A stretch of 64,000 nt of DNA from Escherichia phage BF17. Location: sequence record MW822008.1, one strand, 5' to 3'. Shown here piece by piece: positions 3,531 through 62,565 of the stretch; the stretch's first letter is position 1; each line of letters starts with the position of its first letter. The notes under the pieces were generated by a model that worked only from the letters and a program-made list of their open reading frames with translations, made no database searches and was not told the origin of the DNA. The position numbers and the translations under genes were made by a program.

Positions 3531-3558
3531 TTAATTTTTGGGACAACGCTGAAAAGCA

Positions 3559-3567
3559 TGATATAAT
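3559..3567 (+). promoter_or_regulatory. extended -10 promoter element TGaTATAAT
   Basis: TG at 3559-3560, TATAAT 3562-3567; weak -35. Confidence 0.4.
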
Positions 3568-7950: not shown

Positions 7951-8080
<130 letters not shown>

Positions 8081-8084
8081 AAAT

Positions 8085-8170
<86 letters not shown>

Positions 8171-8187
8171 CAATTAAAGGTTAAACC

Positions 8188-8348
<161 letters not shown>

Positions 8349-8352
<4 letters not shown>

Positions 8353-8509
8353 CACATGAAGAATGGATGAATGACATTAATTTTAGATATTCGGGTATCG
8401 GTAAATGGCTAAAGTATCATTGGGAATTCATTTCAGAGCCACATCTGTATGATAAACTTATCAACGATCCAGCATATGAAATGTACTTAATTGAACTACT
8501 GGTACGAAT

Positions 8510-8513
<4 letters not shown>
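8349..8513 (+). CDS. small protein, MTH-x-EW family, tandem copy 2 (54 aa)
   Basis: Near-identical 5' half to copy 1; ATGA overlaps at both ends. Confidence 0.5.
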
Positions 8514-8681
<168 letters not shown>

Positions 8682-8682
8682 G

Positions 8683-9136
<454 letters not shown>

Positions 9137-9164
9137 GTATCTTAACAACAGAAGGTATATTGAA

Positions 9165-9404
9165 ATGGGTAAGTATTTTGTGAGTTATAGTTATAATGTA
9201 TCACGAAAGATTCCACGTGGTGACGGAATGGGATGGTCTTATGATGCATATACTTTAAATGAGTCATGTATCATCGAATTACAAGAAAAAGACCTTGACA
9301 TTTTAAAAATCAAACAATATATTCTTGATGTTGAATTGGCACATCGTACTGATACCTATCCAGATGTAAACAACATCAGCATCTTAGTACTAACCAAAGT
9401 ATAA
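9165..9404 (+). CDS. hypothetical protein
   Basis: ORF track 9135-9404 trimmed to ATG 9165 after GAAGG RBS. Confidence 0.55.
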   Translation: MGKYFVSYSYNVSRKIPRGDGMGWSYDAYTLNESCIIELQEKDLDILKIKQYILDVELAHRTDTYPDVNNISILVLTKV

Positions 9405-9482
9405 GATAAAAAGAACTTTACTAAATAATTCCACTGGAGATTAATATGTTTAAAGATGAACGTCCAGATTTGTAAAAAGTAC

Positions 9483-9511
9483 TTGAATAAATAATTCAGT
9501 ACTGATATAAT
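9483..9511 (+). promoter_or_regulatory. promoter TTGAAT-N17-TGaTATAAT
   Basis: Extended -10; drives transcription into ORF-poor segment 9518-9870. Confidence 0.5.
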
Positions 9512-9875
9512 GAATTCCACAATCAGACGTATATGGTGTAAGTTACGTCGATGTAATCCAGAACAAGATCTCTGGTACTCTAGGAAGTGGTGAATGTTAA
9601 CCTAGACGGGTTTGATAATTGGACGATAGGCAATTATTACTTGACTAGCAGGTTTAAACTAGAGGTGACCGTCCTTCACCAAACTGGAAAACCGGATGGA
9701 CTTTTATTTAAAAGGGTAAGGCGTGGAAATATGTTTACAGAAGTTGCTTTTAGTAGCCTGTACGCCCCACGTCAAGGTAGTCGAAAGGTAAGTTAAAACG
9801 GGTGGTTATAAAGCTGAATTAACAGCGGCGTTTAAAAGCGTCACCATCCATTTTTTTTTAATTAAAGTTGGTGAT

Positions 9876-10685
<810 letters not shown>

Positions 10686-10709
10686 ACGAAATTACAATAG
10701 GAAATTAAA

Positions 10710-10895
10710 ATGCAACTTTTAATTCTTTCAATATTGTATATTATTATAATGGTTCCGATATCAATACGTTTAATTACAGTTGAACGATTTTTATCGAAAC
10801 ATGGAAATAGATCTATGATCTTTGTACCAATCGGGTTGATATTGTTTGGTATATTTTCATTTATAATGGGAATTAACGCTACATTCATTTCATAG
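10710..10895 (+). CDS. small hydrophobic membrane protein
   Basis: 61-aa ORF, two hydrophobic segments. Confidence 0.45.
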   Translation: MQLLILSILYIIIMVPISIRLITVERFLSKHGNRSMIFVPIGLILFGIFSFIMGINATFIS

Positions 10896-10904
10896 GAAAC
10901 AAAT

Positions 10905-11435
<531 letters not shown>

Positions 11436-11480
11436 GATTCCCGATTCAGTAGCTTATAAAGCAGTTCCGTGTGTGCCTAT

Positions 11481-11533
<53 letters not shown>

Positions 11534-11534
11534 T

Positions 11535-11572
<38 letters not shown>

Positions 11573-11591
11573 AGAGGTACTTCGAGTATGC

Positions 11592-11658
<67 letters not shown>

Positions 11659-11805
11659 TAATTGACATATCATTGAATGGGGTGTATTATGGTTCAAGAA
11701 GAAAACTGGGGTTTTTAACCTAACGAGGTCATTATGAAAGTAAGTAAAGAAACTGCCAAACAGCTTGAAGTACTTTGTAGTGCTGCACCTATGCCGACAC
11801 TTGGC

Positions 11806-11876
<71 letters not shown>

Positions 11877-11917
11877 AATGCGAAAGAGTATAGAGACTTG
11901 TTGGTTATCTTACTTCT

Positions 11918-12000
<83 letters not shown>

Positions 12001-12003
12001 TCA

Positions 12004-12076
<73 letters not shown>

Positions 12077-12093
12077 CAAAATAAAGGTACACT

Positions 12094-17083: not shown

Positions 17084-18241
17084 TTATGCGTTATAACCAA
17101 CAATGACTACAGTACAGCCAAATGGTTCAACAACTTTTAATACAACATTATCATCTGCATCGAGTTCAACTTCACTTAGAACAACATGATTGTCTTCAGC
17201 ATATACTTGAACTTGTGGGAGGATTTTACCATGTTCACTGACAGGAATGGACAGTGTGTACATAGAATCACCATCAACTACCCAATCACTATCGGTATAC
17301 GTGTTGTGATATGGAGTGGTGTGTAAGGTTTTACCAATAATACTCAATGAGATTGGAGCGTCATCAGTTTGGTACACAGTAATATTACCGCTAGGATCTA
17401 CAATGAGGTCTACTCCAATTTGGAATAAATCACCACTGTATGCTTGTAGAGCAAGATACTCACCACGCTCATGCACAGTAGCTGGTACAGTTGCCATGTA
17501 CATACCATCGGACGTGTACTCAAACTGAGATAGAAGTACTGAAGTAACGAAGTCAATATCTTCTCCGCTTTCTAGTATATCAAATTCAATAGTTTTGGTA
17601 TTATATATGTCAGAAGTGAGTATGATGGTTCCTTTACCGGATTGAGTAATTGGATCAACTGGAATACTAAAAACATCATCAATTATTTCAGTTGTGAAGT
17701 ACTCGGTTCCGTCAGGAAGTATAACGGTAATACGCATTCCAGTTGTATCAATGGCTGAACCTGCGTTGAATAGGCGACCACCTACCAAATCATCACCTAC
17801 GAACGTTGGGGACATAAGGATGTTGTCTATATCTCTATCTATAATCCCGCATTCAGGGGTGTACATATTATATAGTGTTTGTGAACTACCTAGAATTGTT
17901 TTGTGCAAAAGAAACTTATAAACAAACCCAGTAGGATCTGATTCAAGTTTAGCATCTGAGTATCCTCTTACGAAAAAAGAGTTCTTTCTTATTTCACTTA
18001 GGATTTGGTCATTAGTTTTGTTGTAGTTTAATTGATATCCTTGTATATCCTTTGTTGTAATTTGTACTTTACGATAAATTACATTACTTACAGGATCAAG
18101 TAAATCATATAATCTATGGCTTCTCTGACGATAGATTCGAACATTTTTGAGTTTAGTCCCATCGTTGAGAATTGCACCATCGACTACATATCCACATTCA
18201 CCGAACTTATATCGTCCAGCAGCAGCAATCGATCTTGACAT
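17084..18241 (-). CDS. hypothetical beta-rich protein (possible structural protein)
   Basis: 385-aa ORF on minus strand with GGAGGG RBS; lone minus-strand gene within the plus-strand block. Confidence 0.75.
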   Translation of the reverse strand: MSRSIAAAGRYKFGECGYVVDGAILNDGTKLKNVRIYRQRSHRLYDLLDPVSNVIYRKVQITTKDIQGYQLNYNKTNDQILSEIRKNSFFVRGYSDAKLESDPTGFVYKFLLHKTILGSSQTLYNMYTPECGIIDRDIDNILMSPTFVGDDLVGGRLFNAGSAIDTTGMRITVILPDGTEYFTTEIIDDVFSIPVDPITQSGKGTIILTSDIYNTKTIEFDILESGEDIDFVTSVLLSQFEYTSDGMYMATVPATVHERGEYLALQAYSGDLFQIGVDLIVDPSGNITVYQTDDAPISLSIIGKTLHTTPYHNTYTDSDWVVDGDSMYTLSIPVSEHGKILPQVQVYAEDNHVVLSEVELDADDNVVLKVVEPFGCTVVIVGYNA

Positions 18242-18301
18242 TCATCCCTCCATTGGTATAATTATTATAACGTATTTATTCTAGATAGGTAAAAAAGCAC
18301 C

Positions 18302-21001: not shown

Positions 21002-21423
21002 GGGGATACAATAAGATTTGTATTTTTGTATTTTTAGTTTGTGCAATCAATACATTTGGATATTACTGTACTGAAAACAACATTTCATATGGTTTAAATC
21101 CTTTGTGGTTTACAATTGCCAATGTAGCACAAATTGGTATTGCTGTTATGTCTGCACTTATGTTCTGTCCAATTGTCACTATGGATACTGATCATGAAAG
21201 GCTTGGATTTATCCGTGATACTGGAGACGAACCTTACAGTAGATTGATTGTGTTGTATCCATTTATTGTTATTTTAGGTACTAACATCCAACTTGGGTCT
21301 TTATCTAATAGTGTTACTTCAGCAGCCATTACAGTCTTTGCATTCACATTTTTTATGGTACACAAATCAGTACTCAAATGGCACATCACCAAAATGGCAG
21401 AGAAAGGTACAGAAAACAGTTGA
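20998..21423 (+). CDS. multi-pass membrane protein
   Basis: 141-aa ORF, hydrophobic segments, ATGA overlap. Confidence 0.6.
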   Translation: MRGYNKICIFVFLVCAINTFGYYCTENNISYGLNPLWFTIANVAQIGIAVMSALMFCPIVTMDTDHERLGFIRDTGDEPYSRLIVLYPFIVILGTNIQLGSLSNSVTSAAITVFAFTFFMVHKSVLKWHITKMAEKGTENS

Positions 21424-21482
21424 CGTGAGTTATTGAGAGATATATAATTATTACATCAAAACTGGGAAATGGTAAGGAACTT

Positions 21483-21740: not shown

Positions 21741-21769
21741 TTGACATAACAAATAATATGGAGTACAAT
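21741..21769 (+). promoter_or_regulatory. sigma70-like promoter TTGACA-N17-TACAAT
   Basis: Upstream of ORF 21809. Confidence 0.5.
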
Positions 21770-21808: not shown

Positions 21809-22069
21809 ATGAAATCTATTCTCGTTGCAGTTAACCAGGTTGCTTCCCCATCTTTTAACTTCAAACAAGTTGTTGCTGATAATCTGAAGAAGATCTGTCC
21901 AAACGCTGAATTGACTTTCTGTGTGTTTGATTCAGAAAAAGTAACTAAAGTTGATCTAAACTATCTTTTGAACGAAGTACAAAGTATTTCTGGTGAAAGT
22001 AACTTAAAAGTTCTTCATGAGATTGCAGAAGATTATGATGCCACTCTAGTAATTTCGGAGAAATTCTAA
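21809..22069 (+). CDS. hypothetical protein
   Basis: 86-aa ORF. Confidence 0.55.
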   Translation: MKSILVAVNQVASPSFNFKQVVADNLKKICPNAELTFCVFDSEKVTKVDLNYLLNEVQSISGESNLKVLHEIAEDYDATLVISEKF

Positions 22070-22074
22070 ATCAA

Positions 22075-22494
22075 ATGATTACATTCATTCAGTACTTAAT
22101 CATTAAATTTTTTGGCTATTATACGATTGAAGGCAAAGCTACACTTGCACATAAAATCTTCGTAGCATTATGTACTGGTGATTACCCTGTATTGAATAAG
22201 TACTGTAAATCTCAAGCATGTATTGATATAATGGCACTTCGCATCTATGAGTGCCGTTCAAATAGATACAATTTTTTCCAGTACAGATATGATAAAGATA
22301 ATTTTGATAGCATTAAAATGCTAAAGAATTTATGTAATAATAAAAAGAATATGCATATATCTGAATTTGTTGCATTGTATTTTTATTTAAAAAGTTCATT
22401 ATACATGAATACACTTCAACGCTTCGATACTAGAATTAATGTATTCAACGATAAAGAATTTTATATCTATGATAAATTTTTAGATAAGGTTTAA
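22075..22494 (+). CDS. hypothetical protein
   Basis: 139-aa ORF. Confidence 0.6.
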   Translation: MITFIQYLIIKFFGYYTIEGKATLAHKIFVALCTGDYPVLNKYCKSQACIDIMALRIYECRSNRYNFFQYRYDKDNFDSIKMLKNLCNNKKNMHISEFVALYFYLKSSLYMNTLQRFDTRINVFNDKEFYIYDKFLDKV

Positions 22495-22495
22495 T

Positions 22496-22993
22496 ATGAC
22501 GACTGTTTATATTGATAAACGCTTGGGAGTATTACTTACTGATTCAAAAGTGACATCAACTGAGCAACGTTCATTTTTGAACCTATTCCCGTTGAAGCCA
22601 AAACTTAGTTATGGTGTAGTTTCACAAAAAACATTGTATGTACACGACCGACTGTTTAGTGCTTGCGGTGAAGTTAGTGAAATTAACAAAGTACTGAGAT
22701 ACTTGATTTCACAAGAGACTGTGATACCAGACCGCAAGGCGAGTTGTCACTGTGTTCTTGTGTCAAAAGATTACATCATTCACTTAATCGTTAATAAGGG
22801 TAAGTTTACCAAGAAGATTGATTATCTCCATAATGATTATACATTCTTTATGGGTAGTGGTGGTGAATACATGCTTGATGCAGCAGTACATGAAGAGTAT
22901 AATACTCTTCTTGATAAGGTATTTGATACCTTCATGGATGTTCATAACCATGATATCTATACCGATGATAATATTAATGTATACCGTTTTTGA
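22496..22993 (+). CDS. hypothetical protein
   Basis: 165-aa ORF. Confidence 0.65.
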   Translation: MTTVYIDKRLGVLLTDSKVTSTEQRSFLNLFPLKPKLSYGVVSQKTLYVHDRLFSACGEVSEINKVLRYLISQETVIPDRKASCHCVLVSKDYIIHLIVNKGKFTKKIDYLHNDYTFFMGSGGEYMLDAAVHEEYNTLLDKVFDTFMDVHNHDIYTDDNINVYRF

Positions 22994-23015
22994 TTTCATT
23001 CATTAGGAGAAGTAA

Positions 23016-23984
23016 GTGAAAAAGCTTGATTTAAATGCAATTTCTGAAGAAGTACTGGATGAGTGTTTTGCTAGTGAAGAAGTCAACGTATTAGAGGCTC
23101 TTGATTCCGTCGAAGAAGAAGAAGAACATGACGGTCACAAGTTTGAGAAACCAAAAACAGGTATCAGCTTAACTCGCCCTAAAGGGATAACGAATGAAAT
23201 GCTCATCCAAGCAGTGCGTGATGGTATTGACGTTGAAAAGAACATTGACCTTTTGGTTCGCTACAACTATCCAATGGTAGTAAGTGTTGCACGTAAGTGT
23301 ACATGTTTTATCCCATTTGAAGATAAGATTTCTTATGGTGTTGAAGGTTTAATGCGAGCAATTCATACGTTCGACACTACCAAAAATGTTAAGTTCATTA
23401 CATATGCAACAACAACTGTGTACATGACAATCTATAACGAAAGTGCAGATGCTAATTATCTAGTGCATTTCCCACGTTATATGAGTGTTAATAACATTTA
23501 TGTGAAACGTTGTGTAGAAGAGTATCAAAGGAAACATGGTAAATACCCAACTCCTGAGATGGTGTCAAAAGAGACTGGTATTGAGATTCAACACGTTAAG
23601 AATTGTCTAACTTACAATAACACTTATGTAGCATTGAATATGAAAATGAGTAATGATTCAGAAAGTACATTATCTGACATTGTTACTTCAGTTGAACCTG
23701 ATTACAACTTAGGCGTAGAAACTGTCAGTACCCCACTGGTACAAAGTATTGCAGAAATGATGAGTAACCTATCTGCCAAAGACCGTGAATTGATTGAACG
23801 TGTACATGGTATTGGTTCTTATTCTGAACCAGAAACGCTACGAGAAATCATTGAGAGTGGTTTTGAAGATGAGAAGGGTAAGGTCATGACTGCTCGTTCT
23901 TCATTGCACCGCAAGTACTCTGAAGCAATGGAACGTCTTCGTAAGATGGTGAAGACGCAAGGTTACGAGTTCGAAGATTTTTAA
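23016..23984 (+). CDS. sigma-70 family RNA polymerase sigma factor (phage-encoded)
   Basis: GTG start after AGGAGA RBS; GVEGLMRAIHTFD...FITYATTTVYMTI resembles sigma70 region 2; C-terminal ...TLREI...RSSLHRKYSEAMERLRK resembles region 4. Confidence 0.6.
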   Translation: MKKLDLNAISEEVLDECFASEEVNVLEALDSVEEEEEHDGHKFEKPKTGISLTRPKGITNEMLIQAVRDGIDVEKNIDLLVRYNYPMVVSVARKCTCFIPFEDKISYGVEGLMRAIHTFDTTKNVKFITYATTTVYMTIYNESADANYLVHFPRYMSVNNIYVKRCVEEYQRKHGKYPTPEMVSKETGIEIQHVKNCLTYNNTYVALNMKMSNDSESTLSDIVTSVEPDYNLGVETVSTPLVQSIAEMMSNLSAKDRELIERVHGIGSYSEPETLREIIESGFEDEKGKVMTARSSLHRKYSEAMERLRKMVKTQGYEFEDF

Positions 23985-23991
23985 GATTAAA

Positions 23992-24017
23992 GGGTTGACT
24001 TCGGTCAGCCTTTTTTT
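23992..24017 (+). terminator. intrinsic terminator (GGTTGAC-TTCG-GTCAGCC + T7), member of repeated hairpin family
   Basis: 7-bp stem with TTCG loop followed by TTTTTTT, directly after sigma factor gene. Confidence 0.7.
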
Positions 24018-24551
24018 ATGGGACAAATTTATTAATGGTGATACAATGATCTATGTACAATCACAATGACAGTACTGGTACTGACAATCTTCCCCTACTT
24101 CACTTGAAAATGTAAAGGATAGATGAGCTTTTCATTGTAGCGAACAGCAAAAGAAACCCGTTAGATGTGGGCATAGTTTGAACCCCTCACGGCAATGCGG
24201 CTGTATAAAGAACCACGTTAGGATAGCTGGTGGTTCCTTGATAGACATATAAGGATAACACCTTACGAATTATCTAAGGGAGAGTTATCGAATTTTGTAC
24301 AGGAAAGTTGCGTCCAAAATTTGAGTACTCACATTAAGTATTTGATTGCATAGATACTTAATGAAGATACACTATGTTTAAAAGTGTAGACCGTCATATG
24401 AAACTGAAGTAGAGAGAAACAGGATGACCCGCTTTCGCACTCATTATGAGTAATCTTCAATGCAATAGCTCTGATACCATCAGCGTCAAATTCCCCTCCA
24501 TGCGGGGGGAAGAAAAATCCCTTCCTCAAATCCCGTCAATATTAAAAGTCC

Positions 24552-24580
24552 TTGACAGTTATGATTCATTCGCGTAGAAT
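24552..24580 (+). promoter_or_regulatory. sigma70-like promoter TTGACA-N17-TAGAAT
   Basis: Upstream of ORF 24645 and the HNH gene. Confidence 0.5.
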
Positions 24581-24644
24581 ACGTAGTATTAGAAGCGAAC
24601 AGACATCTCGAAGAGATGGATGATTAACCACTAAGGAATATCTA

Positions 24645-24854
24645 ATGAATTCAGTAATCTTTTTAATTATTGCTCTTTCACCACAATCTGGTGTACAAAT
24701 CACCCCAATGAATTCAATGAATCAATGCATTGCAGTACGTGACAGTACGTATGAACAAGTAAACAGCGTATCACTTAGAACAGTTGGTGAAGAATTAATG
24801 TGGTGTTACAATAGTAATACTAAAGAGAAACTTATTGTTGGACAAACAAAATGA
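24645..24854 (+). CDS. hypothetical protein
   Basis: 69-aa ORF. Confidence 0.45.
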   Translation: MNSVIFLIIALSPQSGVQITPMNSMNQCIAVRDSTYEQVNSVSLRTVGEELMWCYNSNTKEKLIVGQTK

Positions 24855-25078
24855 GTTATGGTGTTCGTTTTGAGATTCGTTCTATTGTTACCAACAACAA
24901 GAAAGAAGCATCGGTGGATGGATCTATACGCGAATTATATCTATCATGTATCCGTGCCAAATCAGAAGCTGATGCATTAGCACAAATGTTTAGTTTTAAT
25001 TTCTTACATGGATACTATTTGGTAAGAGTTATCGAAGTTAAAAAAGTAAATTTTGGGTGTCTTGAAGGAGAACTATGA
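24851..25078 (+). CDS. hypothetical protein
   Basis: 75-aa ORF, ATGA overlap. Confidence 0.45.
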   Translation: MSYGVRFEIRSIVTNNKKEASVDGSIRELYLSCIRAKSEADALAQMFSFNFLHGYYLVRVIEVKKVNFGCLEGEL

Positions 25079-50288: not shown

Positions 50289-51413
50289 TTAATTATCTAA
50301 GCCACCAATTACACTGAACAGTGTGGTAACGTCTGAACTATTATCTATGTAAGTTCTTCTACCAACATAATATAGTTGTCCTTTTGCTTGAATAAAAGTT
50401 ACGGTCCCTGTATTGAATGTTATAATATCATTGTATGTAATGTCAGGTGGTAGTGCTGCTGATAACGCAGTAACTTTACTTAATGCAGCACTAGTACTAC
50501 CATTTATACCAGCAGCAATACTACCAGTACCATAGAACTTATTATCTTTACCAATGAATACGTTGGCTGATGCTTGTGTAGCTGATGTTATTGCCTTACC
50601 AATTTGGAATGCGGTTCCTATGGTGTATGGTGTGCTCCTGGCTGCGTCTATGCTTTGTGTATATCCATCCCCTAGCTGACCATTAACTTTGTCACCACAT
50701 GAGTATAAAGTACCATTGAGGCTGTATATGATCCCACGGTTAGAGAAGCTAACAGCTTCTGCATTAGTCCATACTGGAGCGGTGTATGAGTTTACACGAC
50801 TAGCAGTAGTTCCTAGTCCTAGTATACCATATGTGTTATCACCACATCCAAACCATTGTCCAGTACTGTTTTGATAGAACACTGAACGTTCTGTTGATTC
50901 CATGCGTACAGCATCCACAGCACCACTTTTAACGAACGAAGTGGATGAGGATGTAGTACCAGTACCCAATGCACCATAAGTGTTTGTACCAATCGCATAG
51001 ATTGATCCTAGTGGTGTCATCACACGTATACAGTTATATCCCAATTGAACTTTACATTCAAATAGGTTGTCCCATATTTCAGGAACAGCAGAAAATAAAT
51101 TTGTAATTTCGAACCATGATGTTGTCGAACCAATTAATCCTATACTGCTTTTGTTTCCTAAAATGAAAACAGTTTTGTCCTTCTTAATTATCCATGATGA
51201 TAGGAAACCTATCTCACAGCTATGAACATTTGATTCTATTTGGGTAATATAATACTTAACTGTGTTATCACCCATGAATGCCGCAGCACCGGATGCAAAA
51301 AGGTTTCCAGTTTGTTTATTTAAAATGTAGTTATTGTTTCCATATACACTAACATCATAAGAACTTTCTTGTTTTTCGTTCCCATAATCAAATAACAATA
51401 CGAAAGGTAACAT
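50289..51413 (-). CDS. RCC1-like repeat protein, MLPF-leader family member 1
   Basis: 374 aa; MLPFVLLFDYGN leader variant; G-x-N-x-x-G-Q-L-G-x-G repeats (GCGDNTYGILGLG, SCGDKVNGQLGDG); GGAG RBS. Confidence 0.8.
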   Translation of the reverse strand: MLPFVLLFDYGNEKQESSYDVSVYGNNNYILNKQTGNLFASGAAAFMGDNTVKYYITQIESNVHSCEIGFLSSWIIKKDKTVFILGNKSSIGLIGSTTSWFEITNLFSAVPEIWDNLFECKVQLGYNCIRVMTPLGSIYAIGTNTYGALGTGTTSSSTSFVKSGAVDAVRMESTERSVFYQNSTGQWFGCGDNTYGILGLGTTASRVNSYTAPVWTNAEAVSFSNRGIIYSLNGTLYSCGDKVNGQLGDGYTQSIDAARSTPYTIGTAFQIGKAITSATQASANVFIGKDNKFYGTGSIAAGINGSTSAALSKVTALSAALPPDITYNDIITFNTGTVTFIQAKGQLYYVGRRTYIDNSSDVTTLFSVIGGLDN

Positions 51414-51490
51414 GATAAAATCTCCTTGTGTTATACTTTATTTAATCATTTTATAATGTACAATTTTACAGCGATTTAATTGAGGTACTC

Positions 51491-52141
51491 ATGAATAAAA
51501 GAAGTAAGTTCTATCAAGAATATTTCACTAAACATAAACGATTCACAAAAAAATACTTTACATCATCCCACCGACCAGTTGCAAGTTACAAACGTCCTAA
51601 TACTAACTATCTTGCTGGTGGCAAGTTTAGTGCAAAGTTCGAATTACTTATGCGTGAAAAGAATATCAAGATGCATTACGCAGAGACGAGAAAAAACTCA
51701 TCAATTATTTGCTCTGATTTTCTTGAGTACGGTTGCTTAACTTATAAATTCAATGATGTATATTTGTATATTGATGTTGATTGTAACAGTACTCTTATGT
51801 TTGAGATTTCAATTCACCCAAATCACAACCGTTATATAAACATTAACTTGATTGATAAAGTACTGATTGGTATATCTAGTACTGATGGTGGTGGATTTGA
51901 ATTTATTGCTTCAAAATATGATGAAGATTTCGTACTTTACCCAGTACTTGATGATGTGAAAGATATTCTCAATTCATTAAAAGGAAGTCAATACAAATTA
52001 TCTGAAGAACAGCTATTTCAGTACTCACTTATTCATGATGATATCGAGATATACTTAGAGTGTGCGAGAATCTTGGAGTATCTTTATAATGAACTAACAA
52101 CAACTGGTAAAGTGACTGCATTCACATTATATAATATGTAA
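51491..52141 (+). CDS. hypothetical protein (EE-x-F-Q motif family)
   Basis: 216-aa plus-strand ORF embedded in the minus-strand array; SEEQLFQYSLI motif. Confidence 0.65.
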   Translation: MNKRSKFYQEYFTKHKRFTKKYFTSSHRPVASYKRPNTNYLAGGKFSAKFELLMREKNIKMHYAETRKNSSIICSDFLEYGCLTYKFNDVYLYIDVDCNSTLMFEISIHPNHNRYININLIDKVLIGISSTDGGGFEFIASKYDEDFVLYPVLDDVKDILNSLKGSQYKLSEEQLFQYSLIHDDIEIYLECARILEYLYNELTTTGKVTAFTLYNM

Positions 52142-52147
52142 AAGAAA

Positions 52148-52167
52148 AGCCAGTACATAGTACTGGC
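52148..52167. terminator. bidirectional terminator
   Basis: GCCAGTAC-ATA-GTACTGGC palindrome between convergent genes. Confidence 0.6.
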
Positions 52168-52173
52168 ATTATA

Positions 52174-53310
52174 TTAAACTGGTGGAGAATTATATGGCTC
52201 AAATTTATAAGTTGTCGTAGCAGTACCAGCAATGGCGTTGTTAGCTAGTATGTACATAGTCCTGTAGTCGATTACCACTACAGTAATACTACCACCAAAA
52301 GCATAGTCTGTTATGTTATTAGTGTTGAATGGTAAATTAGATGAACTGGTCCATGTATTAGCTGTTGTGCTATTTGTACCATTGGAATAACCTACACTAG
52401 ATGCACCAGTTGTCCATAAGTTTCCATCATTGAACAAGGAGACATGGTTAGTTGTATATGATTTATTAGGTATAGAACTATCAATTGGTGTATTCCAAAC
52501 TTTAGTAACCCATGTTGTAACTGCTGTATTATTAGTAACGCCATTACCTAATGAACCATTTATTGGTATACCTCTTATATAAGAAGTGTTAGTACTAGGG
52601 TCAACATATCCAAATGTATATGTATCAAATGCAAATTGAAAACAATCAGAACTCGGTAATGTGTACAGTAATGTATATGAAGACGTGTTTATTGATGAAT
52701 TTGTACCGTTCACACCTTGGTATAAAATACCACTAGCCAATATTTGATTATTATTTTTTGTTATAGTGTTCATTGATGGATATGTTTTCACATCACGCAC
52801 ATCATTAGTCACATATGTTTGTGTTGATAATGCAACGTTACTACCATTACCTATAACCCCTGTATTTGCACCACTCCCATAAAGTGAACCATCATTCAAA
52901 AGAACCATTGTAACATTACCATTTCCCGTAATTGTTTTAATATTACTAACATCCACCGCAGCAAATACAGTTGATGTTAAATCAGTGAAACGTGTATAAT
53001 GTGATGTTGTGCCATTGATTGGTGTCGCAAAACCAGAATACAAAATTCTATTTTCTTTGGTAATAAGGAATGTGCCAGTAACACCATTTGAATGGATATC
53101 AACAATATTATCGCCCATTAATACCCAATCACTTACGAATGTTGTTGTACCAGTACCCAACCCATATGTCGTATTGTATCCACGTCCATACACTCTACCA
53201 TCACTGAGTAATGTTACCACACATTGACCACCACCACCAAGTATAACTTTTTGTATAGTACTCTTTACTTTTATATTCCCGTACTTAACCATTCTTGCAA
53301 AAGGTAACAT
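52174..53310 (-). CDS. RCC1-like repeat protein, MLPF-leader family member 2
   Basis: 378 aa; MLPFARMVKYGN; co-transcribed with member 3 (14-nt gap with AAGGAG). Confidence 0.85.
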   Translation of the reverse strand: MLPFARMVKYGNIKVKSTIQKVILGGGGQCVVTLLSDGRVYGRGYNTTYGLGTGTTTFVSDWVLMGDNIVDIHSNGVTGTFLITKENRILYSGFATPINGTTSHYTRFTDLTSTVFAAVDVSNIKTITGNGNVTMVLLNDGSLYGSGANTGVIGNGSNVALSTQTYVTNDVRDVKTYPSMNTITKNNNQILASGILYQGVNGTNSSINTSSYTLLYTLPSSDCFQFAFDTYTFGYVDPSTNTSYIRGIPINGSLGNGVTNNTAVTTWVTKVWNTPIDSSIPNKSYTTNHVSLFNDGNLWTTGASSVGYSNGTNSTTANTWTSSSNLPFNTNNITDYAFGGSITVVVIDYRTMYILANNAIAGTATTTYKFEPYNSPPV

Positions 53311-53324
53311 TCTTTTTCTCCTTG

Positions 53325-54473
53325 TTATATTGATGGCATATCCAACACATATGAGTTGCTAGTGATTGATGAATATGTAGAATTTAAACCTGTACTATAA
53401 ACATAATCACCTGCCCATAAGAATGTTCTATCCAATGTTGTATGTATTTCAATATCATCATATGATGATAATGATATTTGTGCTAGTGTATATGTAGTAG
53501 CATCAATGTTTGAACCAATACCCAAAGTACCATTGTATTGTGATTGGGAGTTTTGACCAGTTGCATATATACCAGATTTGGTTATTAAATGCTGATTATA
53601 CATTGACGTACCTTTAAACAATTTAATTAAATTAGAGTTAGGTGTTGTTATTTGTGCAGGAGCAAGTATTGTTGTTGTAGTGCCACCATCACCTAATTGT
53701 CCATATCGTTGGTAACCACCAGCGTATACCTGTTTAACTCCAGTAGTAGTTTCTATAATAAAGAATGAACCATAGCCAGTAGTATTAAAGTCTATAATTT
53801 TATTTGTACTCAAACCAACATTATATCTAGTAAATGTTGTTGCATTAGCAGAACCACCAGCATTCCCACCGACCATTTGACCACTATAATAAAATGCACC
53901 AGTACTGTCAGTATAAGCCATACAGTTCTCACTACCATAGATTTTTACTGGTGTACTGGGGAAACTAGAGGTTATATTCACACATGTATTATATTTTGCA
54001 GTAGTTCCAGTAATTTCACCATTGTTGTTTTGACCAATTGCCCAAACTGTGTCATCGGAACGTATAGCCATTGAGCTAAAAAACGATGACACAAATTGTT
54101 TAATAAAGGAACCAGGGAGGGAAGTAAGCATACTATTGATTTGTGCACTCACATTGGTCCATGTATTCACAACTGAATTGACACCTGCCGCTGCACCTGA
54201 ACCTGAACTCCACCATGATTCATCATTCTTTTTAATCAATGTACCGTTAGCAGAACAATAAACATCAGCAACTGAACTATTAACTAATATCCATTCCCTC
54301 GCTGTTGTGGTATTACCAGTACCTAGCTGTCCTGCTGCATTACTACCCTTAGCATATAAATCACCACTCTGCGTTAAAAGCATAGCATGTTGGTATCCAG
54401 TAGATAATTTCTTTATTTTTGGTAATGCTGGTGCTTCATTTCCATAATCAAACATTCTAACAAAAGGTAACAT
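53325..54473 (-). CDS. RCC1-like repeat protein, MLPF-leader family member 3
   Basis: 382 aa; MLPFVRMFDYGN; AKGSNAAGQLGTGNTT, AGGYQRYGQLGDGGTT. Confidence 0.85.
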   Translation of the reverse strand: MLPFVRMFDYGNEAPALPKIKKLSTGYQHAMLLTQSGDLYAKGSNAAGQLGTGNTTTAREWILVNSSVADVYCSANGTLIKKNDESWWSSGSGAAAGVNSVVNTWTNVSAQINSMLTSLPGSFIKQFVSSFFSSMAIRSDDTVWAIGQNNNGEITGTTAKYNTCVNITSSFPSTPVKIYGSENCMAYTDSTGAFYYSGQMVGGNAGGSANATTFTRYNVGLSTNKIIDFNTTGYGSFFIIETTTGVKQVYAGGYQRYGQLGDGGTTTTILAPAQITTPNSNLIKLFKGTSMYNQHLITKSGIYATGQNSQSQYNGTLGIGSNIDATTYTLAQISLSSYDDIEIHTTLDRTFLWAGDYVYSTGLNSTYSSITSNSYVLDMPSI

Positions 54474-54543
54474 AATTCCCTCCTTTATTCATTATACTAT
54501 ATTTAATCAAAAAGAAAAGCCAGCACTCTGTACTGGCATAATA
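54474..54543 (-). terminator. array cassette: terminator hairpin + TATAAT + AAGGAGG
   Basis: Minus strand reads GCCAGTACAGAGTGCTGGC-TTTTCTTTTT...TATAGTATAATGAATAAAGGAGG-ATG. Confidence 0.65.
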
Positions 54544-55695
54544 TTATTTCCACGGTAGAAGTGAATCTGGAACTCTTGTTGGTACATTGGTTGTTGACAC
54601 ACCTGTGAGATTTGGAACACCACATGTATATAAATTATCAGCTTCATCCACTAGCATTGTATAAGAATATCCCCTACAAAAACTACCAATTGCACGGCCT
54701 TCTAATGCAGAAAGATTCATTTCAGTAAATGTTGTTATATTTGCCACGTTTGAACCAACACCACATTGACCATTTGTATTCAGACCACATAAAAATAACT
54801 TATTATTATTTTTAATTGTACATGATGGCCCTGCAAGGTTTGTGCCAAGTTCACCCACCAACTCTATTTCACCTTGGAATGATAAATTTGGAATTAATGC
54901 ACTCATAGGAACTGGTGTTGTATTTCCAGTACCAGCTTGTCCCCTAACGTTAGTTGAAGCCACTTTGACGGTCCCATCATTAAGAAATATATAAGAAGTT
55001 TCAATTGTATTGACTGCTTTAGTCGCAGTAATAATAGAAGATTCTTGAGTAAATGTTAGTACGTTTTGTGCTGATGTTCCTGATACAAATGTATTACCTG
55101 CGTACCAATATGTGCCATCATTGAGCACTAATCCAGTACTGCGTATTGCACACCCAGCACTTCGAACATTTTCAATAGTACTATAAGTGAATTGTGTAAC
55201 GCTTGCAGTTGAACCATTTCCAAATACACCACCTATTCCCGCTCCACAGTAGAACCACTTTCCATTTTTTAAAAATACACGTAAACAACCAGATATAACA
55301 ATATTATCAATATCATCTGCAATAACACCGAAGTCAGCAAAGTTCTGTGTTACTTCAACCCAAACACCGTTGGTATCTGCTGATAATATTGGAATTACAG
55401 ACCTTGAACCAGTGTACCAAATAGTTCCATTTTTCTTAATAGCAATTGTACCTTGAACACCACCCCAATAACGTTCCACATTTGTATTGACATTAGTCCA
55501 TGAAGTTGATGTGTTAGTTGAGCCATATGCACCATTACCGCTTTGTCCATATGTTGCTGTACCATACCAATATAGATCGCCTGTAGTGTGTAAATAAAAT
55601 TTGGAATCAGCCGAGCATTGTAATCTATTTTTAAATATAGGTTTTGGCTCTGGTGCTACATTCCCGAACTTAACCATTCTTGCAAAAGGTAACAT
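54544..55695 (-). CDS. RCC1-like repeat protein, MLPF-leader family member 4
   Basis: ORF track extends to 55761 through the RBS; trimmed to MLPFARMVKFGN start. Confidence 0.85.
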   Translation of the reverse strand: MLPFARMVKFGNVAPEPKPIFKNRLQCSADSKFYLHTTGDLYWYGTATYGQSGNGAYGSTNTSTSWTNVNTNVERYWGGVQGTIAIKKNGTIWYTGSRSVIPILSADTNGVWVEVTQNFADFGVIADDIDNIVISGCLRVFLKNGKWFYCGAGIGGVFGNGSTASVTQFTYSTIENVRSAGCAIRSTGLVLNDGTYWYAGNTFVSGTSAQNVLTFTQESSIITATKAVNTIETSYIFLNDGTVKVASTNVRGQAGTGNTTPVPMSALIPNLSFQGEIELVGELGTNLAGPSCTIKNNNKLFLCGLNTNGQCGVGSNVANITTFTEMNLSALEGRAIGSFCRGYSYTMLVDEADNLYTCGVPNLTGVSTTNVPTRVPDSLLPWK

Positions 55696-55772
55696 ATTTC
55701 CTCCTTTATTCATTATACTATATTTAATATAAAAAGAAAAGCCAGTATCAAGTACTGGCATAGTATTAAGGT
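55696..55772 (-). terminator. array cassette: terminator hairpin + TATAAT + AAGGAGG
   Basis: GCCAGTACTTGATACTGGC hairpin family. Confidence 0.65.
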
Positions 55773-56903
55773 TTAAATATTTTTATAATTAATTTCTACA
55801 TAGTTACGTTGTGTTCCAGTATATCCTGGAACATTACCTAAATTTCCATTACCTGCACCAAACAGACGTTCTCCGACTGCAAAATATGTCCCATAGAAAC
55901 AACCATCAAACACAGGAACATCATTATAATTTGATATGTAATTATCCATTGAATCCATTCTAGTGTATGCAGTCAGAGTTACATTTGTACCTATACCATA
56001 TGCACCATAAGGGTTAGTACCAGCAACATAATACCCAGTGGGTGTACATATTACTGGTGAATTTGCCCCTGATCTCGTGTGGATAAATCTAAATGTACCT
56101 TCAGGTACTGGTGCTTCTTTACTGAATAATGTTGTAGCTACTACTGGGTAATCAATACCATAACTATTACCACTCAACCACGTTTTACCATCACTATCTT
56201 TGAATAATGAACAGGATTGTGTGCATCCGAACAGATTCAAATTGGTTACATTTGGAAATTTACTAATTTGTGTATATACCAGAACTGTGGTTGCGGTAGC
56301 ACTACCAAGTTGTCCACGACCATTATCACCCGCACTGTACATGTACCCATCGGTCTTTAATATTATACTAGCGTTTCCTAAAATATCAAAATCAACAACA
56401 TCCGTTTGTGTTAATGTAGCTATAGGATAACGAAAATTCACTGCCTCACCAGTACCAAATTGACAATTGGTGTTTACCCCACATCCATATAAGTTGCCGT
56501 TTTGCATTAATATAAACAAACCTGTTGTCATTTTAATTTTCTTAATATTAAGAATATCTATATCTTGGAATATGTGTGTTACATTTACAAATGTGGTTGA
56601 GTTAACAGCACTTGAACCATAATAAGAACCGTTCCCGCTACCAAAGAATTCATCGCCTTTTCTGTACATTGCACATAGACTGCCACCCCATACATCATCA
56701 ACTCCAGTGTCAATTTGAATAACTGAAGTAACACTAGTTGTTGCACCAGTGCCAAGTTCACCACCTGAATTGAATCCAAAACCATACAAATCTCCACTTT
56801 CGGTGAGCACCAAAACACTGTTAGTGGTTGTGCATGAAATCTTTTTGATATTATTAGATGGTCTTTTATTTCCGTACTTAACCATTCTTGCAAAAGGTAA
56901 CAT
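55773..56903 (-). CDS. RCC1-like repeat protein, MLPF-leader family member 5
   Basis: Trimmed to MLPFARMVKYGN; GFGFNSGGELGTGATT, SAGDNGRGQLGSATATT. Confidence 0.85.
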   Translation of the reverse strand: MLPFARMVKYGNKRPSNNIKKISCTTTNSVLVLTESGDLYGFGFNSGGELGTGATTSVTSVIQIDTGVDDVWGGSLCAMYRKGDEFFGSGNGSYYGSSAVNSTTFVNVTHIFQDIDILNIKKIKMTTGLFILMQNGNLYGCGVNTNCQFGTGEAVNFRYPIATLTQTDVVDFDILGNASIILKTDGYMYSAGDNGRGQLGSATATTVLVYTQISKFPNVTNLNLFGCTQSCSLFKDSDGKTWLSGNSYGIDYPVVATTLFSKEAPVPEGTFRFIHTRSGANSPVICTPTGYYVAGTNPYGAYGIGTNVTLTAYTRMDSMDNYISNYNDVPVFDGCFYGTYFAVGERLFGAGNGNLGNVPGYTGTQRNYVEINYKNI

Positions 56904-56980
56904 AATTCCTCCTTTATTCATTATACTATATTTAATCAAAAATAAAAGCCAGTATCAAGTACTGGCATAGTTTTATAGTA
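56904..56980 (-). terminator. array cassette: terminator hairpin + TATAAT + AAGGAGG
   Basis: Conserved cassette copy. Confidence 0.65.
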
Positions 56981-58090
56981 TCATTTCGGCATTGTAATTG
57001 CAGACCATGAGTTCGTGGTAATAGGACCTGGCACATACAAAAAAGAACCACAAGCATAAATTTGATTATTACCATCAAATACTATACTAAAATGTGCACA
57101 TGTGTATAATGCTGATTTTTCTGGGTTGTAATTATCTAAAGTTAGTGTATTGGTGAATCTACTCAAACCACCACCAGAACCATTTCTACCAAATTCACCA
57201 GTACTATATATCTTTCCTTCGGTTGTTGCGTACATATTAACATATGAAGTTGCACTTGATTTTGATATTTTATGTATCTTACTATCAATAGTAGTGGAGT
57301 TAAATGCAAATGGATATACTTGTGTGTTCGTTGTAATACCGTTACCAAGTTGACCAACATACTGCCAACCTGCGTTGTATATATTGCTGGCTGAATAAGC
57401 AAGAGTACCAGTACTGTTACCACCAAACAGTTTAACACTGGTTAACCTGCTTACTAGTGTAGTATACTGTCCTGGACTTACGCCAAGTGAACCATACCCA
57501 CTACTCCCACAACCGAGAAGTTCACCATTTGATGTTAATATTAATGTGTTATTCTGTGTACCCAATATATCAAGGACTGTATTAGCTCCGGTATTAATAA
57601 CTGAAACAAAAGTACTCTGAGCCGTGGAATACCCACCACCGAGTGAATAGTTACCATTCATGCCTCTACCATAAACAATCGAACCACTAGCATCAACGTA
57701 GTGCATTGTATCTGCACCAATTGATATCATTTTAATATTAGATATATGTGGAAATGAAGAAGTAACATTCAAACCACCCAACGGAATCGTAGTATTTCCT
57801 GTGCCTAATTGTGTGGTAACTCCATGCATTATGAATTCTTCACCCTTGATATAAAGAATATTGTACGCCCCAGCCCATGCATCAGTAACACCTTCTGAAA
57901 TTAATATCCAAGTATTTCTTGTTGCTGTATTTGTAACGTTTAACTGAAAATACGAATTAACCCCACAACCATAAAGTGAGCCATCGCCATAGAGGACGTA
58001 CAAATTATCAAGACCGCACAGTACTTTCTTTATCTTTGGATCTTCAGGTGCAATATTCCCGTAATCAAACATTCTAACAAAAGGTAACAT
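56981..58090 (-). CDS. RCC1-like repeat protein, MLPF-leader family member 6
   Basis: Trimmed to MLPFVRMFDYGN; AGWQYVGQLGNGITT. Confidence 0.85.
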   Translation of the reverse strand: MLPFVRMFDYGNIAPEDPKIKKVLCGLDNLYVLYGDGSLYGCGVNSYFQLNVTNTATRNTWILISEGVTDAWAGAYNILYIKGEEFIMHGVTTQLGTGNTTIPLGGLNVTSSFPHISNIKMISIGADTMHYVDASGSIVYGRGMNGNYSLGGGYSTAQSTFVSVINTGANTVLDILGTQNNTLILTSNGELLGCGSSGYGSLGVSPGQYTTLVSRLTSVKLFGGNSTGTLAYSASNIYNAGWQYVGQLGNGITTNTQVYPFAFNSTTIDSKIHKISKSSATSYVNMYATTEGKIYSTGEFGRNGSGGGLSRFTNTLTLDNYNPEKSALYTCAHFSIVFDGNNQIYACGSFLYVPGPITTNSWSAITMPK

Positions 58091-58161
58091 ATTTCCTCCT
58101 TTATTCATTATACTATATTTAATACAAAAAGAAAAGCCAGTATCAAGTACTGGCCTATATC
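58091..58161 (-). terminator. array cassette: terminator hairpin + TATAAT + AAGGAGG
   Basis: Conserved cassette copy. Confidence 0.65.
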
Positions 58162-58899
58162 TTAGACTGAATTGTCAGGATAATATCTCCCACGTCCCCA
58201 TATTATTCGCACAGCACCACCACCAGCAGCCGTATAAGAAGAATTATCCCATATACTACCACCACCACCATACCTCTTACCAGCACCACCACTACCAGCA
58301 CCACCATTATATGAACCATCGTAGCTACCACCAATACCATTAGCACCTTGAACAATGATACCAGTACCACCACCCGTACCAATGAACGAGGTATTATAGA
58401 ATGCACCACCACCACCGCCCCCGCCAGCACCATTTTCACCAGTGATTGCATTTCCGTTACCACCTTTACCTGTGTAGCCACCAGCACCACCACCAATGAC
58501 TGCACCACCACTTAAACCAGTGTTGCCACCATTACCACCACCATCATTAATAGCGTTAGCAGCTTTTCCACCTAGTCCACCAACCGTATATGCACCAGTG
58601 AAGCTAACACATAGTTTTTCAGTTCCACGATATAAACCGTTTTCAACTGCTGTAGTAGTGTTGGGATGTGTAAGAGAAACACTTAAGTACTCACCACCAG
58701 AAACCGGAATATTATTACGCCACGATAAGCCGCCACCAGCACCACGTTGACCACCCGGCGAAATAACACATACTGATATTTCGGTAACGCCAGCAGGAAC
58801 TGTAAATTGTGTTGTTCCTATTGTCGTGATTAATTGTTCACCATGTGGCTTATATTCAATTTTATTCCCGAACTTAACCATTCTTGCAAAAGGTAACAT
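58162..58899 (-). CDS. glycine-rich protein with MLPF leader, family member 7
   Basis: 245 aa; MLPFARMVKFGN then FTVPAGVTEISVCVISPGGQRGAGGG and long GGxGG tracts; no RCC1-like motifs. Confidence 0.8.
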   Translation of the reverse strand: MLPFARMVKFGNKIEYKPHGEQLITTIGTTQFTVPAGVTEISVCVISPGGQRGAGGGLSWRNNIPVSGGEYLSVSLTHPNTTTAVENGLYRGTEKLCVSFTGAYTVGGLGGKAANAINDGGGNGGNTGLSGGAVIGGGAGGYTGKGGNGNAITGENGAGGGGGGGAFYNTSFIGTGGGTGIIVQGANGIGGSYDGSYNGGAGSGGAGKRYGGGGSIWDNSSYTAAGGGAVRIIWGRGRYYPDNSV

Positions 58900-58970
58900 A
58901 ATTCCCTCCTTTATTCATTATACTATATTTAACCAAAAAGAAAAGCCAGTATCAAGTACTGGCTTTTACA
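58900..58970 (-). terminator. array cassette: terminator hairpin + TATAAT + AAGGAGG
   Basis: Conserved cassette copy. Confidence 0.65.
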
Positions 58971-60161: not shown

Positions 60162-60231
60162 ATTTCCCTCCTTTATTCATTATACTATATTTAACCAAAA
60201 AGAAAAGCCAGTACTTGATACTGGCGTAATG
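60162..60231 (-). terminator. array cassette: terminator hairpin + TATAAT + AAGGAGG
   Basis: Conserved cassette copy. Confidence 0.65.
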
Positions 60232-61374: not shown

Positions 61375-61445
61375 AATTCCCTCCTTTATTCATTATACTA
61401 TATTTAATACAAATAAGAATGCCAGTATCAAGTACTGGCATTATG
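61375..61445 (-). terminator. array cassette: terminator hairpin + TATAAT + AAGGAGG
   Basis: Conserved cassette copy (weaker U-tract). Confidence 0.6.
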
Positions 61446-62555: not shown

Positions 62556-62565
62556 ATTTCTCTCC

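Follow-up and report, generated by a model that had tools for sequence, protein, structure and literature searches.

Escherichia phage BF17 carries an open reading frame (ORF) that almost certainly codes for a sigma factor of the sigma-70 family, and the question raised by this gene is which of the phage promoters such a factor would serve. The ORF occupies positions 23016-23984 (+) of the stretch of 64,000 nucleotides (nt) analysed here (sequence record MW822008.1), to which we refer as the window and from the first letter of which positions are counted unless another genome is named. On balance, we infer that this protein, made early in the infection, reads the middle promoters of the phage. 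Searches (megablast) with positions 22000-25000 as the query retrieved jumbo coliphages with genomes of ~350-385 kilobases (kb), namely Ecwhy_1 (98.0% identity), fEgEco12 (97.4%) and phages of the 121Q/PBECO4 clade (~84%). These matches place the window in an Asteriusvirus-like (RaK2-like, 'group 2') jumbo coliphage.

The sigma factor and its altered region 4

According to the ORF list, the gene starts with GTG, encodes 322 amino acids (aa) and ends with a TAA stop codon (23982-23984); an AGGAG ribosome-binding site, read from the sequence, is located 6 nt before the GTG (23005-23009, + strand). That the ORF specifies a phage sigma-70-family factor had been proposed earlier from the nucleotide sequence (the original prediction), and the Pfam, PHROG and RpoS/SigB matches, as well as the annotation of the relatives, are all in agreement with this proposal. 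Significant sigma-domain matches were obtained with the Pfam profiles Sigma70_r3 (PF04539; aa 163-225, E=1.3e-11, 44.9 bits against a cut-off of 25.3) and Sigma70_r2 (PF04542; aa 80-142, E=2.6e-9, 37.2 bits against a cut-off of 24). The sole PHROG match of the ORF, extending over aa 1-319, was to PHROG 351, 'RNA polymerase sigma factor' (E=5.4e-48, 165 bits), and the gp55-type families PHROG 234 and PHROG 12791 gave no match. When the protein was compared with the PDB using phmmer, the nearest solved structures were SigB (2.5e-17) and SigA of M. tuberculosis and RpoS of E. coli, the alignment with the latter covering aa 80-320 and including region 4. An AlphaFold2 model, for which an alignment of 20 sequences served as input (mean predicted local distance difference test score, pLDDT, of 68, with 70-90 in the helical domains), retrieved RpoS and SigA holoenzyme chains from the PDB in a Foldseek search, the top match being RpoS chain 5ipl_F (3.7e-11). 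The nearest NCBIfam models were RpoD_Cterm, SigB and RpoS, with scores far under the cut-offs (95.9 bits against 354 for RpoD_Cterm and 81.9 against 378.7 for RpoS). Judged by these scores, the protein resembles RpoD, RpoS and SigB, yet is an orthologue of none of these.

The peptides that had been quoted in the original prediction as belonging to region 2 and to a 'region 4-like' segment are all four present in the ORF. Between the two Pfam profiles with which they were to be verified the outcome was divided: Sigma70_r2 matched significantly, and Sigma70_r4 matched neither the whole protein nor its C-terminal 74 aa alone. No Pfam match was found in the ORF for region 1.2 (PF00140) either. The 'region 4-like' segment appears to be genuine, though atypical, in that it can be aligned to region 4 of RpoS and SigB and displays the four helices of sigma region 4 in the model; the Pfam model fails on it because of an insertion of eight residues and an altered recognition helix, both of which are described below.

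Residues were compared in a first alignment (A1) and in a second one to which distant phage orthologues had been added (MAFFT). The numbers and roles of sigma-70 residues used throughout (readers of the -35, -12 and TG positions) follow published genetics and structures. Regions 2 (23253-23441, aa 80-142), 3 (23502-23690, aa 163-225) and 4 (23715-23957, aa 234-314; aligned to RpoS, SigB and bacterial RpoD), all on the + strand, follow each other in the same order as in the bacterial group 1 and 2 sigmas RpoD, RpoS, SigA and SigB, with which the protein shares 22-27% identity. In place of region 1.1 the phage protein possesses an acidic N-terminus of ~50 aa, modelled with low confidence and conserved even in Xanthomonas phage XaC1, and only the C-terminal half of region 1.2 is recognisable in the alignment. 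Within region 2, the columns kept in common with the bacterial factors are the asparagine of region 2.1 (N84), the GxxGLMRA motif (G108, G111, M113 and A115) and the F-TYA motif of region 2.3, including F127 and Y130. The -10/melting segment reads KFITYATTTVYMTIYNES, the bacterial counterpart being KFSTYATWWIRQAITRA; the tryptophan pair W433/W434 is replaced, and so are the equivalents of sigma-70 R436, Q437, T440 and R441. Region 3.0 is devoid of the residues aligned to H455 and E458, the readers of the extended -10 element.

The four helices of region 4 in the AlphaFold2 model span residues 234-250, 254-264, 275-280 and 294-314 (pLDDT 75-89). Region 4.1 is normal. In region 4.2, the turn of the helix-turn-helix accommodates the 8-residue insertion, which lies within aa 281-292 (23856-23891) and forms a small hairpin in the model. 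The recognition helix that follows, beginning at 23892, is ARSSLHRKYSEAMERLRK. Its arginine equivalent to R584, shared with the bacterial factors, is invariant in A1, and the positions of E585, R586, R588 and Q589 are taken by S, S, H and R, respectively. A region 4.2 altered in this way predicts a -35 specificity unlike that of the host.

Three promoter classes and the recognition helix

Promoter classes were defined on the genome of the relative fEgEco12 (370 kb, 685 genes called here), the upstream regions of which were inspected. The middle class has the form [T/C]G[G/A]GACA-N16-TG[A/C]TATAAT(G). For the pattern G[GA]GACA-N13-TGnTA[TC]AAT, fEgEco12 has 15 matches on the + strand and none on the - strand (0.1 expected), and the spacing is strict: [GA]GACA and TA[TC]AAT are separated by 16 nt at 25 sites, with 3.1 expected, and by 15, 17 or 18 nt at one, three and zero sites, which is at background. 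Middle-class sites precede the genes for ribonucleotide reductase (nrd), sliding clamp, gp32, primase, exonuclease, topoisomerase II and DNA methyltransferase, among others; they are also found before the gene for a gp55-like factor and before each of four paralogues of a structured RNA, both of which are considered below. Two exact matches are present in the window, against 0.01 expected: GGGACA-N16-(TGA)TATAAT at 3540-3567 (+) and GGGACA-N16-(TGA)TACAAT at 24020-24047 (+), directly after the terminator of the sigma gene and thus a candidate target of the sigma factor itself.

The -35 elements of the middle class were then derived for other lineages from their replication modules and from the promoters of the RNA element, and compared with the helix of region 4.2. 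In the E. coli phages of the window and 121Q clades, the helix (A/S)RSS(L/I)HRKY is accompanied by tG(A/G)GACA with N16 (seven of eight candidate sites in a 121Q-clade phage). Salmonella phages SE_PL and PHA46, with the helix SRTSLHRCY, display G(G/A)GA(C/T)(A/G), mostly with N17, at six of eight candidate sites and at the RNA-element promoter. Klebsiella RaK2-like phages combine the helix VRGTLHYKF with cTGAAC(A/G) (4/5 candidate sites), and CBB and Yersinia phage Yen9-04 the helix SKATLSRRY with TGAAAC(G/A); TG(A/G)AA(C/T)N was found at eight of the ten candidate sites of CBB, and this motif agrees with the one published for that phage. The RNA-element promoters of GAP32 and Kaldavass, for which the promoters alone entered the comparison, have TGAAAC.

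The sigma factors of the two Salmonella phages, 98.8% identical to each other, are nearer to that of CBB (45%) than to that of the window (37%), yet both their helix and their -35 element are of the window type. The sigma factors of the two E. coli clades are 59% identical over the whole protein and 73% in region 2, and the core of the recognition helix, RSS-HRKYSEAM, is kept; region 2 and the helix core are conserved better than any other part of the protein, which fits the identical middle motif of the two clades. The hosts of all these phages are Enterobacterales, in which the -35 specificity of sigma-70 should be the same. Given such alike host factors, a -35 element that differs between lineages and keeps a constant distance to a -10 element of the host type therefore calls for a phage-encoded reader.

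Early promoters have the form (AAA)AGTAC-TTGACA-N17-TGTATAAT, and a GGGGAGAA..TTCTCCCC hairpin frequently comes after them. In fEgEco12 there are 40 copies of the exact consensus on the + strand, some of them counted twice owing to the terminal repeat, and none on the - strand (~1 expected); sites matching at least 11 of the 12 consensus positions number 35 on the + strand of the window versus one on the - strand. An AGTACT motif flanks the early spacer on both sides (AGTAC-TTGACA...AGTAC-TGTATAAT), as at 8684, 9105, 26377, 30686 and 41550 in the window. In the terminal repeats of fEgEco12 (1-20 kb and 354-370 kb), transcripts from the early promoters would begin with a conserved AGTTTACATCAAGGGGAGAA..TTCTCCCC hairpin.

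Four close-packed genes on the + strand, separated by gaps of 5, 1 and 22 nt, end with the sigma gene. Upstream of them lie two early-class promoters, each matching 11 of the 12 consensus positions: TTGACG-N17-TATAAT of the host sigma-70 type at 21420-21448 (+) and, nearest to the operon, TTGACA-N17-TACAAT with the usual AAAAGTAT upstream context at 21741-21769 (+). From the latter promoter to the sigma ORF, a consensus scan revealed no further promoter- or terminator-like site apart from a hairpin overlapping the -10 element of that promoter. The strong terminator that had been claimed to follow the ORF is borne out by prediction: an intrinsic terminator, AAAGGGTTGAC-TTCG-GTCAGCCTTTT with a run of seven T (23989-24017, +), begins 5 nt after the TAA and would fold into an 11-bp stem (23989-23999/24004-24014) with a UUCG loop followed by U7 (-13.9 kcal/mol, z=-3.4, with 1 of 200 shuffled sequences as good). 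The consensus terminator scan had missed this hairpin, probably because part of the U run can be drawn into the stem, and the hairpin was folded directly instead. Taken together, the promoters and the terminator make it likely that the sigma gene belongs to an early operon and is expressed early. The CBB paper places the orthologous gene of that phage, CBB_513, in the early region.

The late class is characterised by a TAAATA core without a -35 element, A being favoured at position -1; the sequence before the major capsid gene is cTATAAATA. In fEgEco12, TAAATA is strongly depleted (115 copies with a preceding base other than T, against ~419 expected), and so is TATAAATA, with nine copies against 52 expected. 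This depletion suggests selection against stray late promoters. Intergenic DNA, which makes up 8% of the genome, contains 36% of the 186 copies of TAAATA, and 53 copies are located at most 80 nt upstream of a correctly oriented gene; the genes so preceded encode capsid, prohead, sheath, tube, neck, fibre, baseplate and other virion proteins and include 13/13 genes of the fEgEco12 MLPF array. The same three classes were recognised by motif search in CBB and GAP32 in the CBB paper, with TGAAACG as the middle -35 element and ATAAATA as the late motif.

A second sigma factor, of the gp55 type, is encoded outside the window by gene g336 of fEgEco12 (190974-191912), which matches PHROG 12791, 'sigma factor for late transcription' (1.4e-152), and PHROG 234 (1.5e-16), and adjoins gp47/gp46-like genes; a sliding clamp gene is also present in the genome, and gp33 orthologues have been reported for the RaK2-like group. 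By analogy with T4, the TAAATA class, devoid of a -35 element, would belong to this gp55-like factor. A middle-class promoter, GGGACA-N16-TGCTATAAT, is found at 190988, inside the annotated 5' end of g336, and the PHROG match starts only at residue 36, so that translation probably starts ~35 codons downstream of the annotated position. The late sigma gene would thus be a middle gene because of the promoter in its annotated 5' end, and according to the CBB paper the late sigma gene of CBB is likewise a middle gene.

Proposed readers of the middle and late promoters

That the early-made sigma factor reads the middle promoters is the reading towards which we lean, with modest conviction; the assignment of sigma to class draws on the co-variation described above, and several points weigh against it. 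The -10 element of the middle promoters is a perfect extended -10 of the host type (TGnTATAAT), and the phage protein is without the equivalents of W433/W434, of the -12 readers Q437 and T440, and of the TG readers H455 and E458. Host sigma-70, unaided or together with a phage activator, could therefore read these promoters, and a MotA-like factor replacing the -35 contact may be what co-varies with the box in place of sigma. The co-variation itself is correlative and comprises 5-16 promoters per lineage, the lineages not being fully independent of each other. The classes were defined on a relative, and the window is part of a genome; literature searches found no transcription start site maps, time courses or biochemistry for this phage group. 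An arrangement in which host sigma-70 is assisted by an activator bound to the G(G/A)GACA box and the phage sigma serves other targets would account for the host-like -10 as well as for the loss of its readers from the phage protein, and T4-like phages solve the problem of middle promoters in exactly this manner. We nevertheless regard it as quite improbable: the box stands at the -35 position with a fixed spacing of 16 nt and keeps the GACA half, as expected of an altered region 4.2, and in four sigma types a change of the box is matched by one of the recognition helix. A tblastn search of fEgEco12 with T4 AsiA gave nothing below E=2, although the test was weak, the query being short and divergent. 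It is equally improbable, in our view, that the phage sigma replaces or competes with host sigma-70 at TTGACA/TATAAT promoters, thereby sustaining early and tRNA transcription once host sigma-70 has been inactivated, or that it titrates the core polymerase from host genes. Such a role would fit its closest similarity, which is to the group 1 and 2 sigmas (RpoD_Cterm, RpoS and SigB), the features common to it and the host system (an arginine at the R584 position and the GACA half-element), the very many consensus promoters of the phage and the genome papers, which call the protein, in general terms, a host take-over factor. Against it stand the changes at four of the five positions aligned to the -35 contacts of sigma-70 and the insertion in the helix-turn-helix, the NCBIfam scores far under the RpoD and RpoS cut-offs, and the existence of a distinct, strictly spaced and clade-specific -35 element, which needs a reader.

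The original prediction had assigned the sigma factor a different task, namely to account for the promoters of the MLPF (RCC1-like) gene array (50289-63711, - strand; PHROG 4219, 'regulator of chromosome condensation'), described as having TATAAT and AAGGAGG but no -35. This description is accurate, since with TATAAT taken as the -10 element the top -35 match is only 1-3 of 6 positions. Each array promoter is preceded by a GCCAGTA..TACTGGC terminator with a T run and has the sequence TTAAATA-tag-TATAAT-gaataAAGGAGG, and TAAATA is found 31-36 nt upstream of the ATG in every MLPF gene of the window. If the phage sigma read these promoters and other late genes, it would have to do so through region 2 alone, on TATAAT without a -35. 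The combination TAAATA-N3-TATAAT, with TATAAT exactly 3 nt after TAAATA, is indeed found at nine window promoters (0.18 expected), eight in the array (54491, 55712, 56920, 58107, 58917, 60179, 61392 and 63718, - strand) and one at 18264, before a virion structural gene (17084-18241, - strand); it is also kept in the array of 121Q and in three of the five array promoters of Salmonella phage SE_PL. In addition, the base preceding TAAATA (position -1) is T or G in the MLPF promoters, as opposed to A in 22 of 37 other late promoters, and their GTATAATG context agrees with that of the -10 element in early and middle promoters. However, TAAATA, and not TATAAT, is the sole element common to the array and the 37 non-array late promoters, and its genome-wide depletion and intergenic concentration identify it as the functional signal. 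Three array promoters, at 51444 in the window and two out of ten in 121Q, have lost the critical last T (TATAAC) with TAAATA intact, and the first array gene of Yersinia phage Yen9-04 is preceded by GGTAAATA, TATAAT being missing. A gp55-like late sigma is encoded in the closest relative, and the complete, conserved region 4 of the window sigma argues for a -35-dependent mode of action. We therefore consider it unlikely that the window sigma reads these promoters by region 2 alone, and the proposed link between the two, which these observations do not support, is probably wrong. The MLPF promoters are rather likely to be late-class promoters read by the gp55-like factor. TATAAT was also considered as a general feature of late promoters and rejected, given that beyond the array and one virion gene TAAATA alone is conserved.

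In terms of mechanism, then, the preferred reading, in which the window sigma is a middle sigma, would run as follows. The host sigma-70 holoenzyme would transcribe the four-gene early operon from the promoters at 21420 and 21741, the hairpin at 23989-24017 ending the transcript. The sigma protein would then bind the host core polymerase, and its divergent region 4.2 would steer the enzyme to the middle promoters, G(G/A)GACA-N16-TGnTATAAT, which would drive the genes for nucleotide metabolism and replication, the gp55-like late sigma and the repeated structured RNA. The gp55-like sigma would in turn read the TAAATA late promoters, those of the MLPF array included. Such a cascade would lead from host sigma to window sigma to late sigma, in a phage type without an RNA polymerase of its own. 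That these phages possess a dedicated middle sigma whose recognition helix and -35 element have diverged jointly across at least four sigma types, providing natural orthogonal sigma/promoter sets for the enterobacterial core polymerase and a three-step cascade, is a proposition that we hold to be evenly balanced.

T4 uses MotA and AsiA at its middle promoters, and gp55, gp33 and gp45 at late promoters of the sequence TATAAATA. The phages considered here resemble T4 in that their TAAATA late core without a -35 element is similar to TATAAATA, in the position of the gp55-like gene beside gp47/gp46-like genes and the presence of a sliding clamp (fEgEco12), and in that their middle promoters keep a host-like -10 and replace the -35. 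They differ in that the window ORF is not gp55-like and in that, at middle promoters, the phage seems to rely on an entire sigma factor of its own instead of a host sigma-70 remodelled by AsiA and MotA. The proposed logic is that of Bacillus phage SPO1, in which the host holoenzyme transcribes an early gene for a middle sigma, gp28; this factor directs the host core polymerase to middle promoters, from which the late factor (gp33/gp34) is expressed (PMC13401047 and established knowledge). The likeness is one of logic; SPO1 has a Gram-positive host, and in our case the late factor is of the T4 gp55 type and the window sigma a putative middle sigma.

Neighbourhood, relatives and a structured RNA

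The three genes preceding the sigma gene in the operon encode proteins of 86 aa (21809-22069, +; PHROG 26969, unknown function), 139 aa (22075-22494, +; PHROG 37211, unknown function, without a Pfam match) and 165 aa (22496-22993, +; PHROG 24804). The last of these, also without a Pfam match, shows a weak similarity to PHROG 1040 (HslV peptidase; 2.8e-6), and its counterpart in fEgEco12 is labelled 'ATP-dependent protease subunit HslV'. The terminator hairpin after the sigma gene belongs to a family, GGGTTGACTTCGGTCAGCCC followed by a T run, that is represented by nine near-identical copies on the + strand of the window (23992, 32462, 36056, 36836, 38417, 39099, 43571, 44154 and 46914), with zero expected by chance. 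In six of the nine copies, TTGACT in the 5' arm of the stem doubles as the -35 element of a TATAAT 18 nt downstream, and such copies, to judge from this arrangement, serve as terminator and promoter in one between genes of the early region. The copy behind the sigma gene precedes the middle-class promoter at 24020-24047 instead of the TTGACT/TATAAT arrangement.

Elsewhere in the early region, six tRNA genes (Ser-TGA, Ser-GCT, Met, Asn and two Thr-TGT) are located at 7991-12077 (+), and consensus early promoters are found near the cluster, for example at 8684, 9105 and 10249. As regards the late genes, RCC1-like arrays with a conserved MLPF/MIPF N-terminus are present in nearly all relatives examined. 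The array is operonic in Erwinia phage Kaldavass and in Yersinia phages, and in E. coli and Salmonella phages most of its genes have their own terminator and promoter.

The middle promoter at 24020 reads into ~600 nt without a convincing ORF. This stretch contains a structured non-coding RNA of ~470-490 nt (24055-24545, +, with a putative 5' end; conserved core 24094-24540), of which there are four copies per genome in all, the paralogues in fEgEco12 being located at 59916-60390, 110671-111081 and 195789-196152. All four copies in fEgEco12 possess a middle-class promoter of their own and a terminal TTCATTCCCCTGCGGGGGGATGAA hairpin. At the DNA level the stretch is 96% identical in the 121Q clade (24100-24650; the sigma protein there is 59% identical) and ~70% identical in GAP32 and in jumbo phages of Erwinia, Yersinia and Salmonella; most of the RaK2-like phages examined (E. 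coli, Salmonella, Cronobacter, Erwinia and Yersinia) carry three to five copies of ~450-540 nt. An alignment of ten sequences yielded 78 consensus pairs, a long-range closing helix included, and compensatory changes were seen in 38 of the pairs; 95.4% of the cells were paired versus 39-46% in slid controls, the covariation score was 0.435 versus at most 0.09 in slid controls, and none of 500 shuffles reached the observed values. A coding function for the gap after the terminator was considered and rejected, the small ORFs differing between copies and the substitutions preserving base pairs. Genome records leave the RNA unannotated or place small 'hypothetical' ORFs there, and endonuclease genes are found near several of its copies.

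Rfam searches of the window, and permissive ones of 23950-24700, returned tRNAs and chance-level matches only, the RNA element remaining unmatched; a literature search revealed no description of it, and a scan of IMG/VR with a conserved 16-mer of the RNA recovered a 121Q contig as the sole true match, the other 16 loci being due to chance. The RNA is a candidate for a new structured RNA family, possibly a main target of the middle-class machinery and probably the more novel object of this neighbourhood when compared with the sigma gene.

The sigma gene itself is already known: it is annotated in near-identical genomes and is a hallmark of the RaK2-like jumbo-phage group, from whose 'group 2' sigmas the window gene, being the same gene, differs in nothing essential; its link to the middle class is what is deduced here. 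Orthologues are present in fEgEco12 (g519, annotated as 'RNA polymerase sigma factor' and occupying the same position in the early region), Ecwhy_1, 121Q (gp167), CBB (CBB_513) and Yen9-04 (g498). Over the full length, protein identities are 99% to Ecwhy_1 and fEgEco12, 88% to JNE01, 59% to 121Q/PBECO4, 39% to Klebsiella RaK2-like phages, 37% to CBB and 31-34% to Yersinia, Erwinia and Xanthomonas relatives. The factor evolves far more quickly than the replication core, with 59, 39 and 37% identity to the 121Q, RaK2 and CBB lineages as compared with 84, 81 and 68% for gp32, a homologue of which is encoded in ~90 records. The gene is mentioned in genome papers on CBB (CBB_513), Sharanji and fEgEco12. 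In the fEgEco12 paper (PMC13070987), Gp519 is listed among the proteins missing from Ecwhy_1; this is contradicted by a full-length, 99.4% identical copy that tblastn located at 1665-2630 of the Ecwhy_1 record MH791411, where it is annotated as 'similar to RNA polymerase sigma factor'. Literature searches found no experimental work on the specificity of RaK2-like sigma factors and no paper assigning a promoter class to them. The RNA-seq paper on PA5oct describes four non-coding RNAs resembling only the MIJ3 isolate, together with host-like promoters, and was for these reasons set aside as evidence on the window sigma.

While the sigma gene alone adds nothing new, the proposed function, if true, would show how a 350-kb phage without a polymerase of its own times its genes, with three sigma factors and three recognisable classes of promoters, and it would make transcription units and their timing annotatable across dozens of sequenced relatives. 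The joint change of helix and -35 element among phages of E. coli, Salmonella, Klebsiella and Pectobacterium/Yersinia would then amount to a natural test of sigma specificity and might supply E. coli with orthogonal sigma/promoter pairs. It would also mean that a phage of Gram-negative bacteria runs a sigma cascade of three steps, with an undescribed structured RNA among its targets.

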